A DNA stretch of 64,000 nt. It comes from Bacilli bacterium. Its GTDB lineage: Bacteria; Bacillota_I; Bacilli_A; RFN20; CAG-826. The position numbers and the translations under genes are program-made. Position 1 is the first letter of the stretch. Each line of letters starts with the position of its first letter. The stretch is taken from the NCBI GenBank assembly GCA_045628045.1, contig JAZQOV010000002.1, positions 1 through 64,000 of the forward strand. The letters are read 5' to 3'. The notes below the pieces were generated by a model, which made no database searches, was not told the DNA's origin, and saw only the letters and a list, made by a program, of their open reading frames with translations. Shown here in pieces: positions 47,770 to 61,587 of this stretch.

Positions 47770-48948
47770 ATGGAAGAAATTATTATTAATAAAATTGATA
47801 ATAAACTTGTAATTAAACTCTCCGGAAAAATTGAGTCAACTTTTGCTGAGGCTCATGGAGAAGAAATTTTCTCTAAAATAACTCAACAAGATGATGTAAC
47901 TATTGATCTAGAAGATGTTTCATATGTTTCAAGTGCAGGGCTTCGCATTATTTTAAAGTGTGCAAAGCTCGCTAAGACAATTGAAGTAATCAACGTTGAT
48001 GTTGATGTTTATGAAGTCTTTTCAATAAGTGGTTTTACTGAAATGATTAAGATTAAACGCGCTAAACGTGTTTTATCTATTGAAGGAAAAGAAGTTATTG
48101 GACAAGGCGCTAATGGCAAAGTTTATCGTTACGACATTGATACCATTATTAAAGTTTATAGAGAAGGCACAAACATGGATGACATTGAGAACGAAATCGC
48201 AATGTCTAAGAAAGCTTTTATACTTGGAGTTCCTACAGCAATTCCGTTTGATATTGTTCGTATTAAAGAAGGCGGCTATGGCTGCGTTTACGAGCTTCTA
48301 AAAAGTGATGTTATGAGCAATTTAATCGTGAAAAACCCGGGAAAAACCGGCAAATTCACTGAATTATTTGCTTCTGCATTATCTGCTTTTTTACATACTG
48401 AAACTTATGACGAAACTCTCCCAAAGAAAACTGAATATGTAAATGAATGGATTGAATATTTTGAAGAAAATAAAATTTATTCTCCAGATGTAATTTCAAA
48501 GATTAAAAAATTAATTTCTACAATTGCTGATGGACATACTTTAGTTCATGGTGATTTTCATATAAAGAATATTATGTTTCAAAATGATGAACCAATCATA
48601 ATTGATATGGACACATTAGGCGTTGGTCATCCACTCTTTGAAATTGCTTATTCTTATTATGCAATGGTTGCTTATGATGAATTAACACCAGAAAAAACAT
48701 TAGATTTCTTTGGTATCGATTATGAAATTACAAAGAAAATTTATGAAGATACTTTCAACATAGTTTTCAAAGATAAAAGCGAAGAAGAACGCAAAGATAT
48801 CCAGGAAAAAGCATCGTTTTTGGCACATTTGCGCATTTCTTACCGCGCAAATCACCATGTTCCATCTGACCATCATAAAGCACAACATGCAGTGCAATAT
48901 GTTCTAGATAACATTGATAAATTTACAACATTGGATTTTAAAATTTAA
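47770..48948 (+). CDS. STAS domain fused to an APH/choline-kinase-like phosphotransferase
   Basis: IDL..V.YVSSAGLR STAS motif; IGQGANGKVY, HGDFH.KNI and IIDMD kinase motifs. Confidence 0.82.
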   Translation: MEEIIINKIDNKLVIKLSGKIESTFAEAHGEEIFSKITQQDDVTIDLEDVSYVSSAGLRIILKCAKLAKTIEVINVDVDVYEVFSISGFTEMIKIKRAKRVLSIEGKEVIGQGANGKVYRYDIDTIIKVYREGTNMDDIENEIAMSKKAFILGVPTAIPFDIVRIKEGGYGCVYELLKSDVMSNLIVKNPGKTGKFTELFASALSAFLHTETYDETLPKKTEYVNEWIEYFEENKIYSPDVISKIKKLISTIADGHTLVHGDFHIKNIMFQNDEPIIIDMDTLGVGHPLFEIAYSYYAMVAYDELTPEKTLDFFGIDYEITKKIYEDTFNIVFKDKSEEERKDIQEKASFLAHLRISYRANHHVPSDHHKAQHAVQYVLDNIDKFTTLDFKI

Positions 48949-48950
48949 TT

Positions 48951-49715
48951 ATGAAAAAGACTAAATTAGTTTTGCTATTAGCATTGTCATCACTTCTTAC
49001 TGGATGTTCATTTTTGGAATCTTTCATTAACAAAACAGGATCCGAAACAAATCATCAGCAACAAAATGAAGAAACTCATCATGAGGATGGTGGAAACACC
49101 CAAACTGATGATGATGGCGGAAACACCCAAACTGATGATGGCGGTGGAACAACACACATCGATGATGGCGGAACAAGTGATTATCACCCTACAAATAACG
49201 CGCTTTCTTTAGAAGATTACACCAGTTTTGAGTTTCATGATGGTCATGAACCTGAATATAATGATGCTTGGAATTTCTATTATGGTGATTCTCATAATCC
49301 AAACGGATGTTTATGGGAGAATCCAAATGAAAGCGTAGATTATTCAGGTATTGAATTTAAAAAGAATTGTTTTATTGTTTCTCCAAAATTTAATTCTTGG
49401 AACAAACTTGAGATTCGTTTTAATTTTTGGTTCACACTTCATACATCTGATAAATACAGTGCAGTGAATGGTCAACCTCAATTTAAATTAGAGATGTATA
49501 ACTCGAGCGATAAACTTATTTCGGTTACAGATATTGTGATTGAGAAGTCAGATGTTCCTACTAATAATACAACTAGAGAAATTAGAACTTACATCTTTGA
49601 ACCAACTGCAACATTCTTTATTTTAAGATGGAATAATTACGTTCCAAATAAGCAAGGTGGTTATGGTCAAATCTTATGTGATGCCACATTAAAAGGATGG
49701 CCATACGATAGATAA
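48951..49715 (+). CDS. Lipoprotein with Asp/Gly/Thr repeat linker
   Basis: LLTGC lipobox; DGGNTQTDD repeats; aromatic-rich C-terminal domain. Confidence 0.75.
   Translation: MKKTKLVLLLALSSLLTGCSFLESFINKTGSETNHQQQNEETHHEDGGNTQTDDDGGNTQTDDGGGTTHIDDGGTSDYHPTNNALSLEDYTSFEFHDGHEPEYNDAWNFYYGDSHNPNGCLWENPNESVDYSGIEFKKNCFIVSPKFNSWNKLEIRFNFWFTLHTSDKYSAVNGQPQFKLEMYNSSDKLISVTDIVIEKSDVPTNNTTREIRTYIFEPTATFFILRWNNYVPNKQGGYGQILCDATLKGWPYDR
49086..49174 (+). repeat. 27-bp tandem repeat (about 3 copies) in the lipoprotein linker
   Basis: gatggtggaaacacccaaactgatgat / gatggcggaaacacccaaactgatgat / ggcggtggaacaacacacatcgatgat. Confidence 0.8.
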
Positions 49716-56763: not shown

Positions 56764-56795
56764 AAGAAGAGCTCCAGAAATGGTGCTCTTTTTTT
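56764..56795 (+). terminator. Intrinsic terminator
   Basis: AAGAGC.CCA-GAAA-TGG.GCTCTT plus T-run. Confidence 0.8.
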
Positions 56796-56897
56796 GTTTG
56801 GTTATTAAAATATAAAAAAGTTTATTAATAAACTTTTTTACTTTTCAAAATCCTTTTAATATGATAAACTATAAAATGTAAAGGTACTTTATATTTT

Positions 56898-58001
56898 ATG
56901 ATTAGAGAAATAACCGAAAAAGAAATTAAAGCTTTTATCAACTTTGGAGATGCTTTATACAAAGGTGATAAAAACTATATTCCTTATATTAATAAGGATT
57001 TAAAAAAGACACTTAAAAGACTAGTCTTCTTCAGAAAAACATATTTCGCAGTATGTCATTTCGATAAGAATAACAAGGTTGATGGTCGAGTGTTATTAAC
57101 AATTGGAAAAAGCAAACAACTTAAATCAGATAAGTGCGGATATTTTTCGCATATTGAGTTTGTTGAGAATTATGATGTTTTTAAGGAATTAATGGATTTC
57201 TCCCTTAATTTATTAAAGGAAAAAGGTGCTGATTGCACATGTGGAACTTTTTTCCATCATGATCCAGACAACAGAAGAGGCATTTTAATTGATAACTTCG
57301 ATACATTCCCAATGCTTTTTACATCTTATAATAAACCTTATTACAAAGATTACTTTGAAAAGTATGGATTTAAGAAATTAATCGATGCTCTTGAATATGA
57401 ATATTCTTTTAAAGAAGATAAGATGAAAGCCGTTAAAGAAAAAGGTGAACAAGCTTTAATTGATAATGACATTCATATTGATAAAGCAGACTTAAAGCAG
57501 CTTGATAGAGAAATTGAAGCGGTTCATGACATTATGGTGACCGCATCAACTTCAATAAATTTTGAAGAAGTTATTTCTAAAGAACAGATTAAAAAAATCT
57601 TTTATTCTTTTAAATCATTCCTTAATCCAGATTATGTATTTTTTGCAAGAACAAATAAAGATAATAGACCAATTGGTTTTACTTTCGCATTACCTAATTA
57701 CAATGAGGTAATTAAGAAAATGAACGGGAAAACCAATATATTTTCACTAATTAAGTTCGCTATTTATAAAAAACGCATTACAGGTTTAAGGGCAATGCTT
57801 CAATACATAATTCCTGAATATCAACACAAAGGAATTTCAAAAGCTTTATATAATGAAACAAGAAAATCAATTGAGAAAAATCACATTACTCGTGTAGGGC
57901 TTGGAACCATTATGGAAAACAATGATAAATCAAATGGACTTGTTGTTTCTGCTGGAGGAGTTAGATCGAAAACCTACCGCATCTACTATAAAGAATTATG
58001 A
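56898..58001 (+). CDS. YghO-like tandem GNAT acyltransferase (bacterial ceramide synthase-like family)
   Basis: LY..D.NY.P, GRV, GYF..IE, GIL.D.FD......YN.PYY...FE..GF.K..D, PEYQ.KG and K.YRIY.K motifs. Confidence 0.7.
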   Translation: MIREITEKEIKAFINFGDALYKGDKNYIPYINKDLKKTLKRLVFFRKTYFAVCHFDKNNKVDGRVLLTIGKSKQLKSDKCGYFSHIEFVENYDVFKELMDFSLNLLKEKGADCTCGTFFHHDPDNRRGILIDNFDTFPMLFTSYNKPYYKDYFEKYGFKKLIDALEYEYSFKEDKMKAVKEKGEQALIDNDIHIDKADLKQLDREIEAVHDIMVTASTSINFEEVISKEQIKKIFYSFKSFLNPDYVFFARTNKDNRPIGFTFALPNYNEVIKKMNGKTNIFSLIKFAIYKKRITGLRAMLQYIIPEYQHKGISKALYNETRKSIEKNHITRVGLGTIMENNDKSNGLVVSAGGVRSKTYRIYYKEL

Positions 58002-59173
58002 TTTTAACAATTATTGAAATTATTCTAGCTTTAGTTGTGCCGTTTCTTACTATTAAATTTAGTAATAACTGGTTAACAAAGAAATTAGGCGTAGTTGGCA
58101 CTAATTACCTTTTAGGTATTGTTTACGCTTTAATTATTTTTGCATTCACAAAAACAAATATAATTACTCAAAGAGATACTTCTGGGAATGAAATTCTTTC
58201 ATATCTAGCGGTTTCTTTTTCAATTCCGTTCTTACTTTATAATACAAATTTTAGAGATGTTCTTAAGCTTTCAAAAAAGAGTTTAATTTCATTTGGATTA
58301 CTAATCTTCTCTGTTATTTGTGTCACCACAATTACCTATTTTGCATTCTCTAAAAACATTGCCTCTGGAAATGTATTAAGTGGAATGGCTGTTGGACTTT
58401 ACACCGGCGGAACTCCAAATCTCAATTCAGTTGCTTATTCATTTGGATTAGATAAAGACACAATTTTAATGAGCAATATTAGCGACATTATCTTTGGCGG
58501 ATTGTTTTATGTATTTTTGATTTTGCTCGCAAAACCTTTAATAAAACATTTCTTAAAAGGCGATGTTGAAAAAGACAAAGAATTTGTTTGTGAAAAACAA
58601 GAAGAAACGGCATTTTCCTTTAAAAATCATGGTGTTTTCCGCAATATTTTATTAACTTTAGGCGCTGTAGCAATATCAGCCGGAGTTGGTGTTTTGATCT
58701 GGGTTATTACCGGAAAAGTTGATGGAACATTAACCAATTATTTAGTCCCGGCTTTAATGCTTGGAACCACAGTTATTGGTCTTGTACTTTCATTTAATAA
58801 AAATATAAGAGAAGTAAAAGGCAACAACAAAATGGGTGAATATTGTTCTTGTGTTTTTAGTTTTGCAATTTCATCAATTATTGATTTTAATAAACTTTCT
58901 AGTCTTGCATTAAATATTTTTATTCATTTTGCAATCATTACCCTTGCTACATTTTTACTTCATTTATTACTATGCAAAATTTTCAAAATCAATGCTGATA
59001 TTATGATTACAACATGCACAGCAGGCATTTATGGACCAGCATTTATTCCTAGCGTTACTAAAAGTATTGGCGCACAATATATGTTAGCTACAGGATTAAT
59101 CCTAGGATCACTAGGTTATGCAATCGGTACCTTTTTAGGCATTGGAATTGGCCAATTATTTACGTTATTTTAG
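57998..59173 (+). CDS. DUF819 family membrane protein
   Basis: About 12 TM helices; GLYTGGTPNL..V, TAGIYGP.F and G.LGYAIGTFLG motifs. Confidence 0.75.
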   Translation: MILTIIEIILALVVPFLTIKFSNNWLTKKLGVVGTNYLLGIVYALIIFAFTKTNIITQRDTSGNEILSYLAVSFSIPFLLYNTNFRDVLKLSKKSLISFGLLIFSVICVTTITYFAFSKNIASGNVLSGMAVGLYTGGTPNLNSVAYSFGLDKDTILMSNISDIIFGGLFYVFLILLAKPLIKHFLKGDVEKDKEFVCEKQEETAFSFKNHGVFRNILLTLGAVAISAGVGVLIWVITGKVDGTLTNYLVPALMLGTTVIGLVLSFNKNIREVKGNNKMGEYCSCVFSFAISSIIDFNKLSSLALNIFIHFAIITLATFLLHLLLCKIFKINADIMITTCTAGIYGPAFIPSVTKSIGAQYMLATGLILGSLGYAIGTFLGIGIGQLFTLF

Positions 59174-59185
59174 GGGGTTTTTGCT

Positions 59186-60814
59186 ATGAAACTTGTTGAT
59201 TACGTATTTGAATCCGAGAAGAAATATCTAAAAAATATCGCATATTCCTTCATGGGAAAGAAAACGACTTATGAAACCATGGCAAAGCGAATTGATGATG
59301 TCGCTTTGTGCTTACTAAATCTTGGTTTAAAAGATGGAGATATTGTTTGTATTGCAATGCCTAACACACCACAAGCAATCTTAACAATTTATGCTTGTAA
59401 CAAAATTGGTGTTACTGTAAACATGATTCATCCACTTTCATCTGAAAATGAATTCTTAACATTTGTTAATAAGGTAAAAGCCTCAACAATTTTAATCATT
59501 GATCAATTTGTTAATAAAATTGAAGCAATTAGAGAAAAGACAAATCTTAAAAACATCATCGTTGCAAGCGTGCGTGATGAATTATCTTTTGTGAAGAAAG
59601 TTGGTTATGATTTAACACTTGCAAAGAAGACCCCAAAATTTGATGCTTCTAAAGTATTAATGTGGACTGACTTTATTAAAAATAAAGCCAATGTTGATTT
59701 AAGTGAACTTAAAACCAAAAACGAAATAGCTTTGATTCTTCACTCTGGAGGAACAACAGGTAAAGTCAAAGGTGTTTGTTTATCTAATACTGCAGTTAAT
59801 GCATCTGCAGAGCAAATGCTTAAGGCTAACCCAATGATTGATAATTCAGATAGATTCTTATCCGTTATGCCAATTTTCCATGGTAATGGCCTAGTTATTG
59901 GTGTTCACTCAATGCTTATGCTTGGCGCACGCTGCGTTCTTATTCCAAGATTTACTCCTGAAACATACGCAAAAGACTTAATTAAAAATAAATGTAACTA
60001 CATGTCTGGAGTTCCTGCATTATTTGAAAGATTAATGGGCGTAGAAATAATGAAAAAAGCCGATTTATCATTCCTTAAAGGTGCATTCTCTGGTGCAGAT
60101 TATTTATCTGTAGAATTAGAAAGAAAAATTAATGTGTTCCTTAAGGAACATAATGCAAAGGTTCCAGTAAGACAAGGCTATGGAATGACTGAAGGCGTTG
60201 TTGCAACCACACTTAATCCGGTTGATAAACAAAAAGAAGGCTCAATTGGTGTAGCTCTTCCAGGTGTTGAAGTTAAAATTGTTAAACCAGGTACTGAAGA
60301 AGAAGTTAAAACTAATGAAGTTGGTGAAATTGTCTTCTCTTCAATCACTAACATGTCTTATTACTATAATGATCCTGAAGAAACTGACATCTCTATGAAG
60401 AAACATAAAGATGGAAAATATTGGATTCATTCAGGGGATCTTGGCTCAGTGGATGAAGATGGATTTTTCTTCTTTAAAGGAAGAATTAAGAGAATGATTG
60501 TAACAAATGGTTACAACGTCTTCCCAAATGAACTCGAAAATATTATTGAATCATTTGAAATGGTGGACAGAAGTTGCGTTCTCGCTCTTCCTTACTCTGA
60601 TGGCACAGACAGAATTCAAACTTTCATTACTTTAAAGAAAGGCTTTGCGCCAAGTGAAGAATTAAAAGCAGAAATCAAATCATTGTGTGCTAAAAATATC
60701 GCAAAATATGCACTTCCAAAGAAAATAACATTTATTGATAAAATGCCAACAACCAAAGTTGGCAAAGTTGATTTCAATGCTTTGCTTAAAGGCGAATTTA
60801 ATGAAGCAAAATAA
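59186..60814 (+). CDS. Long-chain acyl-CoA synthetase (ANL adenylate-forming)
   Basis: HSGGTTGKVKG, QGYGMTE, SGDLG..DEDGF.F.KGR.K and P.TKVGK motifs. Confidence 0.9.
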   Translation: MKLVDYVFESEKKYLKNIAYSFMGKKTTYETMAKRIDDVALCLLNLGLKDGDIVCIAMPNTPQAILTIYACNKIGVTVNMIHPLSSENEFLTFVNKVKASTILIIDQFVNKIEAIREKTNLKNIIVASVRDELSFVKKVGYDLTLAKKTPKFDASKVLMWTDFIKNKANVDLSELKTKNEIALILHSGGTTGKVKGVCLSNTAVNASAEQMLKANPMIDNSDRFLSVMPIFHGNGLVIGVHSMLMLGARCVLIPRFTPETYAKDLIKNKCNYMSGVPALFERLMGVEIMKKADLSFLKGAFSGADYLSVELERKINVFLKEHNAKVPVRQGYGMTEGVVATTLNPVDKQKEGSIGVALPGVEVKIVKPGTEEEVKTNEVGEIVFSSITNMSYYYNDPEETDISMKKHKDGKYWIHSGDLGSVDEDGFFFFKGRIKRMIVTNGYNVFPNELENIIESFEMVDRSCVLALPYSDGTDRIQTFITLKKGFAPSEELKAEIKSLCAKNIAKYALPKKITFIDKMPTTKVGKVDFNALLKGEFNEAK

Positions 60815-60861: not shown

Positions 60862-61587
60862 ATGTTTCCACTTGGCCCATTAGTAAATTCATTTGCAGTC
60901 CTTATTGCAGGTTTTTTAGGAGGCTTAGTAGGCTCTAGATTAAAAGAAAGAGTTGCTACAGCCTTAAGTGTTTTAATGGGCTTTGTTGCACTTGCAATAG
61001 GTATTATCTTAACAATTCAAGTTCAAACTCTTCCTGCGGTTGTGCTTTCTTTAGTTTTAGGCACACTCATTGGTTCACTTTTAAAACTTGATGATAGAGT
61101 TTCCTCTTTATTCGCGAAGATCAACAAAAAATTCTTTAAACAAGATCAGGACGAAGAAAAATCATCCATGTTTAATACAGTTTTAGTACTTTGTTGTGTT
61201 AGTGGAACTGGCATATTTGGTGCAATAAATGAAGGTTTAGGGAATGGGACTACGATGCTTATTTGCAAAGCAATTATGGATTTTGTAACTGTCTTTATCT
61301 TTGCATCTTATATTGGAAAATCATGCGCTTTAATTTCTATTCCTCAAGTAGTTATCCTTTTGCTTCTATTCTTTTTAGCAACATTTGTGAAACCGGTTGT
61401 AGATAATCCAATCCTAAAAGGTGATTTTTCTGCAGTTGGAGGAATAATTGAATTAATTATTGGTTTTAGAATTTTAAAGCTCACAAAAATGAAGGTTATT
61501 GATACGCTTCCTTCAATTATTCTTATCTTTTTAGTAACATGGATTTGGAATCTAGCATTACCAGGTCACATTAACTTATTTGCCTAA
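60862..61587 (+). CDS. DUF554 family membrane protein
   Basis: G..VN...V..G, CV....I.GA..EGL, K.I.DF and VGG......G motifs. Confidence 0.85.
   Translation: MFPLGPLVNSFAVLIAGFLGGLVGSRLKERVATALSVLMGFVALAIGIILTIQVQTLPAVVLSLVLGTLIGSLLKLDDRVSSLFAKINKKFFKQDQDEEKSSMFNTVLVLCCVSGTGIFGAINEGLGNGTTMLICKAIMDFVTVFIFASYIGKSCALISIPQVVILLLLFFLATFVKPVVDNPILKGDFSAVGGIIELIIGFRILKLTKMKVIDTLPSIILIFLVTWIWNLALPGHINLFA

Follow-up and report, generated by a model that had tools for sequence, protein, structure and literature searches.

A GNAT-DUF819 gene pair in Bacilli and Clostridia as a candidate salvage module for sphingolipid backbones

We analyzed a stretch of 64,000 nucleotides (hereafter the window; contig JAZQOV010000002.1, positions 1 to 64,000, of assembly GCA_045628045.1) from the genome of a Bacilli bacterium of the CAG-826 lineage, here called G000. 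Three consecutive open reading frames (ORFs) in the window encode a tandem-GNAT acyltransferase, a DUF819 membrane protein and an acyl-CoA ligase, which an earlier note, made from the letters of the window, had proposed as a new lipid N-acylation system. We find that the conserved unit is the GNAT-DUF819 pair, to which the ligase has been added locally, and we put at about one half the probability that the pair imports a scavenged long-chain base and N-acylates it, acting as a salvage module for the sphingolipid backbone. The three genes are as follows.

56898..58001, plus strand: tandem-GNAT acyltransferase of the YghO/bCerS family, DUF819-linked clade (ORF1, 367 amino acids; Pfam, AlphaFold2 model, YghO match, tree, alignment)
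57998..59173, plus strand: DUF819 membrane protein with a CitS-like (CPA/AT) secondary-carrier fold (ORF2, 391 amino acids; Pfam, model, fold search, tree)
59186..60814, plus strand: FadD-like acyl-CoA ligase, local third gene (ORF3, 542 amino acids; Pfam, NCBIfam, locus comparison)

The coordinates agree with the operon described in the earlier note: ORF1 and ORF2 share an ATGA overlap at 57998-58001, and ORF2 and ORF3 are separated by a gap of 12 nucleotides (59174-59185).

The Conserved Unit Is the GNAT-DUF819 Pair

We retrieved for locus comparison the best 80 of 281 GTDB places with a relative of the GNAT. A DUF819 gene is present in 77 of the 80, directly downstream of the GNAT in 75, 3 kb downstream in one and upstream in one; two of the remaining loci have none despite 6 kb of flank, and the contig of the third stops at the GNAT. 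The paired GNATs form 55 clusters at 70% identity, and their loci span Clostridia, Erysipelotrichales, Izemoplasmatales and Acholeplasmataceae. A ligase occurs in 3 of the 80 loci and is the third gene in two of them (L003 and L004, 61-63% identical to ORF3), six loci stopping within 1.5 kb of the GNAT and being unable to show a third gene. Furthermore, in 14 of 50 pair-carrying genomes, taken regardless of completeness, no AMP-binding enzyme was matched at E<=1e-15, which marks the ligase as a local addition. The triad was therefore rejected as a conserved system, an outcome that the earlier note had itself named among those that would refute its proposal.

In a sample of 250 genomes from the phylum of the window, DUF819 scores above its cut-off in 15. 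Fourteen of these proteins, that of G000 included, belong to the clade of the window, each encoded next to the GNAT; the remaining one is a canonical DUF819 beside an M19 dipeptidase. The pair clade is found in 4 of 100 relatives of G000 and in none of 36 congeners, a distribution that suggests patchy, probably lateral spread. As a separate observation, 15 loci of L054-L081, several of them Izemoplasmatales, have after the pair a conserved 651-amino-acid gene that by eye resembles a Firmicute fructose-1,6-bisphosphatase, probably as lineage synteny.

The GNAT Belongs to the YghO/bCerS Family

ORF1 has a weak match to PF00583 over residues 235-348, in its C-terminal half. It aligns over its full length with YghO of E. 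coli BL21 (24% identity, E 2e-24), whose gene adjoins annotated spt, acyl carrier protein (ACP), epimerase and fatty acyl-AMP ligase (FAAL) genes, and it matches seven GNATs of the spt-cluster type at E 1e-16 to 1e-31. As proxies for the bacterial ceramide synthase (bCerS), the Caulobacter and B. fragilis enzymes included, we used YghO together with six GNATs encoded in sphingolipid-type clusters of plasmid records; a gene like that of serine palmitoyltransferase (Spt) lies within the retrieved stretch for 5 of the 7. The AlphaFold2 model of ORF1 is a tandem GNAT (pLDDT, the predicted local distance difference test, 91.9), as confirmed by its fold matches, and the protein is soluble, with zero predicted membrane helices. 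The top structural matches are MshD (1ozp; Z 19.7, root-mean-square deviation (rmsd) 3.1 over 276) and, tied with it at 10-14% identity, glucosamine N-acetyltransferases (Z 19.3-19.5), including the clostridial enzyme 5kf1 (Z 19.3, rmsd 4.5 over 291). Searches of PDB sequences and NCBIfam gave no family for ORF1, and the ESM Atlas returned generic acetyltransferase clusters only. The full-length YghO match and the tandem fold bear out the earlier assignment as a YghO-type double GNAT and not a FemABX protein.

Across 61 family members from all clades, some 27 positions show at least 80% conservation, among them R64, G116, G128, G157, P266, G277, E340, N342 and R361. The C-terminal domain of ORF1 keeps Q309-x-x-G312, which we take to be a CoA-binding-type motif, together with N342, and in an alignment of 81 clade members Q309, G312, E340, N342 and R361 are near invariant. 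The DUF819-linked clade also has distinct residues near the C-terminal active region, Y303 and T337 (with G334 in the window). The window GNAT retains most of the family residues, yet E334 is replaced by Gly and G133 by Asn.

Trees were built on hand-picked subsets (64 and 61 rows for the GNAT family, 69 rows for DUF819). In the unrooted 61-row tree the DUF819-linked GNAT core is a single clade (100/100), which joins (100/99) a Clostridia sister set and five GNATs that neighbour sister-type DUF819 genes. The spt-cluster GNATs of Proteobacteria and Actinobacteria form their own clade (100/97), and a third clade (100/100) unites Bacteroidales proteins with Bacilli paralogs encoded beside DegV, PlsX or PlsC-like genes. 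The kinship with bCerS invoked in the earlier note thus holds at the level of the YghO/bCerS family; within it, as far as an unrooted tree with proxies goes, the window GNAT falls into a clade of its own beside the spt-cluster and Bacteroidales clades. One further DUF819-linked GNAT, L271, belongs to the Bacteroidales-containing clade, so the carrier has been paired with this GNAT family at least twice.

The DUF819 Subfamily Is Shared with Lyase-Linked Loci

ORF2 matches DUF819 (PF05684) at 87 bits against a cut-off of 27 (E 1.8e-24). Its model has 10 long helices and two broken helix pairs, which we read as re-entrant hairpins, in agreement with the 10H-2RH topology given for DUF819 in a passage of PMC8396727. 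The roughly 12 transmembrane helices counted in the earlier note are therefore approximately right in number, two of the elements being pairs of the re-entrant type. The best fold match is CitS (TM 0.47-0.58, E about 1e-4). The subfamily of ORF2 scores about 80-150 bits on PF05684, against 290-370 bits for the dipeptidase-adjacent type.

A profile of 56 GNAT-linked DUF819 proteins was run against 50%-identity representatives, and 50 more distant matches were aligned and used to retrieve 80 of 566 metagenome loci. Among these nearest outside relatives, 16 of the 80 loci carry a gene like sphingosine-1-phosphate (S1P) lyase and 4 a YghO-type GNAT; one such lyase was checked and matches PDB 3mad at E 4e-125. 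An unbiased search with Pfam identified 17 full-length DUF819 proteins among 251 Clostridia-side genomes. Eight are near the clade of the window (a neighbouring GNAT in four, one of them the search centre, a lyase in two and neither in two) and nine are distant (a peptidase neighbour in seven, nothing recognised in two). In the DUF819 tree, which omits L244 (lyase 3 kb away), all 26 GNAT-linked and all 17 lyase-linked rows intermix in a single clade (100/99), outside which lie all 8 peptidase-linked rows, the peptidase labels of L300-L302 being given by resemblance to the Pfam-checked L299. Canonical DUF819 genes adjoin M19, M20 and M15 peptidases; the window DUF819 neither groups with nor neighbours dipeptidases or epimerases.

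Since one carrier subfamily is common to S1P-lyase-like and sphingoid-base-acylating families, it is most simply read as a carrier of long-chain bases. Together with the Spt association described below, this gives independent comparative support, for this subfamily, to the tie between DUF819 and long-chain-base metabolism drawn in the earlier note.

In the same large clade, the DUF819 genes L278 and L279 of the Roseobacter group have as neighbours a D-arabinono-1,4-lactone-oxidase-like gene and one for a cytochrome c. We take these neighbours to resemble the sphingosine-detoxifying SphBC pair of Pseudomonas, and L279 has in addition a pyridoxal-phosphate enzyme of the DSD1 family, presumably like SphD.

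Spt-like Genes in Pair-Carrying Genomes

E. coli Spt served as the query against 50 of the 80 genomes that carry the pair. An upper tier of matches, at 37-44% identity, is present in 21 of the 50; a lower tier, at 32-35%, lies mostly beside threonine-dehydrogenase-like genes. The upper-tier proteins have as their best NCBIfam model the Bacteroidota Spt, NF047600 (522-541 bits, cut-off 640), and as their best PDB match serine palmitoyltransferase 3a2b (E 2e-125). A short-chain dehydrogenase/reductase (SDR) adjoins the Spt-like gene in 28 of 31 distinct loci, with KdsR (NF049977) as its best model (229-236 bits, cut-off 400). Such a Bacteroidota-type two-gene operon, Spt-like and KdsR-like, is seen in Bacillota at L133-L153 and L166-L177. 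One Clostridia order has Spt-like genes in 93 of its 301 sampled genomes, and the phylum of the window in 29 of 251.

In the phylum sample, the Spt-like gene is found in 9 of 14 pair carriers versus 20 of 236 other genomes, and among the relatives of G000 in 3 of 5 versus 12 of 96. Both the Spt-like gene and the pair occur in 15 genomes of a 40-genome set. Seven of these 15 have no family match (E<=1e-6) besides the paired GNAT, including two single-contig genomes, G484 and G581, that are 98-99% complete; of the others, one has two copies of the same clade and seven have a further paralog. Among 20 genomes with the Spt-like gene and no pair, 17 have one distant paralog and three have none. If the Spt-KdsR operon yields ceramide, the paired GNAT would be the only candidate ceramide synthase found in those seven genomes. 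Conversely, in four Spt-less pair carriers at 99% completeness (G501, G507, G516 and G587) the GNAT of the pair is the sole family member; these and G000, which have no Spt-like gene, would need a base from outside.

In the Clostridia order, Spt is present in 76 of 140 genomes with any member of the GNAT family versus 17 of 161 without. The sister GNAT subfamily L178-L191 has no DUF819 within 6 kb and 19 of its 22 genomes are Spt-positive; it is likely to be a stand-alone ceramide synthase of these Clostridia.

Genome G000 and the Ligase

G000 has a size of 1.07 Mb and is 96.07% complete and 0.05% contaminated. In tblastn searches with E. coli proteins, plsX, a FabG-like SDR, tmk, rsmH and ftsZ were found, and fabH, fabD, fabF, murC-G, mraY, ddl, ftsI and ftsW were not. 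It carries one ACP, on a contig other than that of the window, three PlsC-family acyltransferases, DegV and a second acyl-CoA ligase. With no matches to type II fatty-acid synthase (FAS II) or peptidoglycan genes, it looks like a wall-less fatty-acid scavenger.

Spt was not found in the window, as the earlier note had said, nor in the rest of G000, with four Spt-type queries (E. coli, Streptomyces and Bacilli types) and an Spt-like profile. Searches for Kbl, BioF, CerR, KdsR and S1P lyase in G000 were likewise negative: the CerR queries reached just a weak dehydratase-type gene (E 1e-5 to 1e-9) and the KdsR queries gave one partial match, to a FabG-like SDR (E 2e-8). Of the components of a de novo ceramide pathway, Spt and a reductase were thus not found in this 96% complete genome, nor an AasR-type ligase and a dedicated ACP in the cluster of the GNAT.

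ORF3 has both AMP-binding domains. Its best NCBIfam models are long-chain fatty acid-CoA ligases, in keeping with the earlier label, all of them below cut-off (the best, PRK05605, at 323 bits versus 766), and two FAAL queries did not match it. The earlier note had pointed to the acyl-activating enzyme with which bCerS usually clusters; that ligase is usually of the fatty acyl-AMP/AasR type, and ORF3 is FadD-like.

Several observations stand beside these genes. In the genome of the triad carrier L004, L165:6366-9545 (minus strand) encodes a 1059-amino-acid protein in which AMP-binding, ACP and alpha-oxoamine synthase domains are fused; a KdsR-like SDR gene comes next. Frames similar to the fusion, of about 1090 amino acids, occur in at least 8 genomes of the Clostridia-order sample. 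In G000, C7:65681-66544 is a GGDG-motif ORF that by eye resembles a lipid kinase of the diacylglycerol/sphingosine-kinase family. At L001:3606-7517, class III aminotransferase, class II aldolase-like and FGGY-kinase-like genes stand in a row 2.6 kb upstream of the DegV-GNAT pair of contig C7.

Surroundings of the Three Genes in the Window

Two candidate signals lie upstream of ORF1.

56764..56793 (approximate), plus strand: terminator-like hairpin and U run closing rplM-rpsI upstream of the unit (fold -14.9 kcal/mol; absent from the consensus-scan list)
56837..56865, plus strand: promoter-like site TTTACT-17-TATGAT (9 of 12 matches; weak evidence)

Given the terminator-like hairpin 3' of rpsI, the three genes are likely to form a unit distinct from rplM-rpsI. 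The promoter scan itself is at chance level, with 18 sites in the region versus 24.4 expected from shuffles. A DUF554 gene and a tRNA cluster lie 3' of the unit. The DUF554 membrane protein (60862-61587) begins 47 nucleotides past the ligase with no intervening terminator; it was rejected as a member of the unit, being found beside the GNAT-DUF819 pair in 0 of 80 loci. Elsewhere in the window, 47770-48948 encodes a STAS domain fused to an APH/choline-kinase-like domain, and 48951-49715 a lipoprotein-like ORF with a short acidic repeat (DDGG..TQT) and without a Pfam match.

Discussion

The gene anatomy, family, fold, conservation and co-occurrence described above suggest the following scheme of substrate, transport direction, acyl donor and product. 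An ion-coupled DUF819 carrier would bring in a free or phosphorylated long-chain base of the sphinganine or sphingosine type; if the phosphate is what is carried, the scheme needs either a phosphatase or a product that is a ceramide phosphate. The imported base would be N-acylated to (dihydro)ceramide by the GNAT, a member of the bCerS family, with acyl transfer in the C-terminal domain of the enzyme and probably at the inner face of the membrane, where bCerS acts according to PMC11087976. In G000, where no FAS or Spt was found by our searches, scavenged fatty acids would be turned into acyl-CoA by the FadD-like ligase. Where a relative has no ligase, acyl-ACP would be the donor, and in relatives with the Spt-KdsR operon the same GNAT could serve as the ceramide synthase of a pathway in the eukaryote order (Spt, KdsR, acylation). 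For a wall-less cell the product may serve to make the membrane stiffer, or acylation may render a toxic base harmless. In sum, the GNAT is a member of the YghO/bCerS sequence family that stands outside a de novo pathway and is likely ceramide-synthase-like, with a dedicated importer. The observation in the earlier note is thereby confirmed and its interpretation partly supported.

A number of findings weigh against this reading. The Spt-like and KdsR-like proteins both score under the curated cut-offs. In the Clostridia order, Spt is found in 3 of 14 pair carriers versus 90 of 287 other genomes, which is no enrichment; these counts fit salvage but give no link. Where co-occurrence is seen, the genomes come from few families, so that the counts are not independent and are descriptive rather than a test. 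Neither GNAT nor lyase is present in 60 of the 80 sister-DUF819 loci, many of them on short contigs, and the known substrates of the CitS fold are small carboxylates and not lipids. The window GNAT is just 20-25% identical to the spt-cluster GNATs, and its clade lies apart from both the spt-cluster and the Bacteroidales-containing clades, with the tree unrooted and the characterised enzymes represented by proxies. Position 334 is Gly in the window; in the loci closest to it, the five L003-L007, it is Ser or Thr, and L053 also has no Glu there. Glu334 is present in 74 of the 81 members of the DUF819-linked clade, and each of the 44 rows from other groups has it too. This makes the ligase-bearing subclade the least typical part of the family, and replacement of Glu334 may have changed its specificity. 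Finally, G000 has a second family member at C7:38121-39248 (L001:10122-11249), directly after a DegV gene; this paralog belongs to the Bacteroidales-containing clade and is 38-40% identical to the Bacteroidales proteins, as compared with 25-26% for the window GNAT. Its orthologues in related Bacilli lie beside DegV, PlsX or PlsC-like genes, often where no Spt was found.

Several of these points fit a second explanation, less probable than base salvage, in which the same architecture handles another amine: at least in the subclade of the window, a smaller amine or amino alcohol would be imported and a non-ceramide N-acyl amide made. Glu334 is replaced precisely in the window and L003-L007, none of the five genomes of L003-L007 has a stand-alone Spt-like gene (one has the ligase-ACP-synthase fusion), and the G000 paralog is nearer to the Bacteroidales CerS. 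The small-solute, CitS-like fold of the carrier would suit such a substrate, as would the best structural matches of ORF1, which acetylate small amino sugars or thiol precursors (MshD and the glucosamine N-acetyltransferases). Left unexplained would be why the paired GNAT is the sole family member in 7 of 15 Spt-like genomes and why S1P-lyase-like genes recur beside the carrier subfamily.

Free sphingoid bases are toxic. It is conceivable, if rather unlikely, that the base is the substrate and DUF819 exports or flips the base or ceramide, or that the pair mainly detoxifies antibacterial free sphingosine by acylation. The pair is also present in apparent base makers (9 of 14 carriers; 3 of 3 for sister pairs), where an importer is not needed, and as of PMC11087976 no bacterial sphingolipid flippase had been identified. 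Two findings favour import: both genomes in which the carrier is paired with a catabolic lyase are without Spt (2 of 2), and the GNAT-DUF819 pair persists in 99% complete genomes that have no Spt.

Improbable, on balance, is that the window copy is a laterally acquired, partly redundant cassette with the ligase as an unrelated passenger, the needed acylation being done by the DegV-linked C7 paralog. The absence of the clade from the 36 other genomes of the genus, the absence of these genes from the 0.7-1.5 kb after rpsI in four congeners, the Clostridia-labelled loci as nearest relatives and the ligase as third gene in just 2 of 80 loci would be expected on such an account. The three ORFs are, however, intact and tightly coupled, their order recurs in two loci at 46-63% identity, and their third-position GC (0.21-0.24) matches that of truA and ecfT nearby. 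Two further readings, an aminoacyl-tRNA transferase of the FemABX type or a module for cell-wall peptide recycling, might draw on FemX and FemA among the fold matches (Z 14.3-15.8) and on the M19, M20 and M15 neighbours of canonical DUF819. They are largely excluded by the higher scores of acyl-CoA-type tandem GNATs (Z 19-20), the YghO sequence family, the position of ORF2 outside the peptidase-linked DUF819 groups, and the negative results for a FemAB Pfam or PDB sequence match of ORF1 and for murC-G, mraY, ddl, ftsI and ftsW in G000.

Base salvage by the pair thus remains our preferred reading, and a wider version of it can be offered tentatively, with less confidence than the reading itself. 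The DUF819 subfamily may be the first dedicated bacterial sphingoid-base transporter, feeding either S1P lyase for breakdown or a new ceramide-synthase clade for salvage, so that wall-less Bacilli and gut Clostridia would build ceramide membranes, some via Spt-KdsR and others, such as G000, entirely out of bases and fatty acids scavenged from the host, plants or Bacteroides. Acholeplasma axanthum was long ago reported to contain ceramides. Fed sphinganine is converted to dihydroceramides by the gut microbiota, and non-producers also take up dietary sphinganine, according to parts of PMC7910519. The existence of a bacterial sphingolipid salvage pathway is called not clear in a passage of PMC11324152, and PMC11087976 states that flippases or lipid transporters for bacterial sphingolipids have not been identified. 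We found no link to GNATs or sphingolipids in the portions of the DUF819 literature covered, and no description of the GNAT-DUF819 pair in excerpts of the literature on DUF819, BT_3032/ceramide, Acholeplasma sphingolipid and Spt in Firmicutes/Tenericutes. The pair names two small, clonable candidates for uptake and re-acylation of sphingoid bases, gives one DUF819 subfamily a testable job and would extend ceramide chemistry to Bacillota lineages. Sphingolipids being host signalling lipids, gut salvagers could alter host pools.

Comparison with Known Systems

The closest known enzymes are the bCerS/CerS proteins (Caulobacter CC_1154, also CCNA_01212; B. fragilis BF9343_4218; E. coli YghO), with which the window GNAT shares sequence family, tandem-GNAT length, conserved positions and solubility. 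The Caulobacter ceramide genes are arranged like the yghO-spt cluster of BL21 (as outlined in PMC11324152), and Bacteroides CerS homologues are reported, in the part of bioRxiv 2023.05.23.541633 covered, to acylate sphinganine. The window GNAT differs from bCerS in its 20-26% identity (to proxies), in its separate clade (100/100) and in being coupled to DUF819 and not to spt, cerR, acp or aasR, with no Spt or CerR found in G000. The Bacteroides route of Spt, KdsR (BT_0972) and CerS has a likeness in the many pair-carrying genomes whose best matches to these models are Spt-like and KdsR-like. In these Bacilli-type or Clostridia-type hosts the Spt-like and KdsR-like genes adjoin each other in 28 of 31 loci, whereas BT_0972 is not clustered with spt (in the account excerpted from PMC9278070), and neither gene was found in G000.

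MshD (1ozp) and the glucosamine N-acetyltransferase 5kf1 have their fold in common with ORF1, at 10-13% identity and with no sequence match. Eukaryotic sphingolipid salvage would follow the same logic as that proposed here, the re-acylation of a recovered long-chain base (described in part of PMC11324152), with enzyme and carrier families unrelated to those of the pair. Among the DUF819 proteins (PF05684), CPA/AT carriers related to CitS, ORF2 shares the Pfam match and the fold, and is set apart by a subfamily linked to GNATs and S1P-lyase-like genes.

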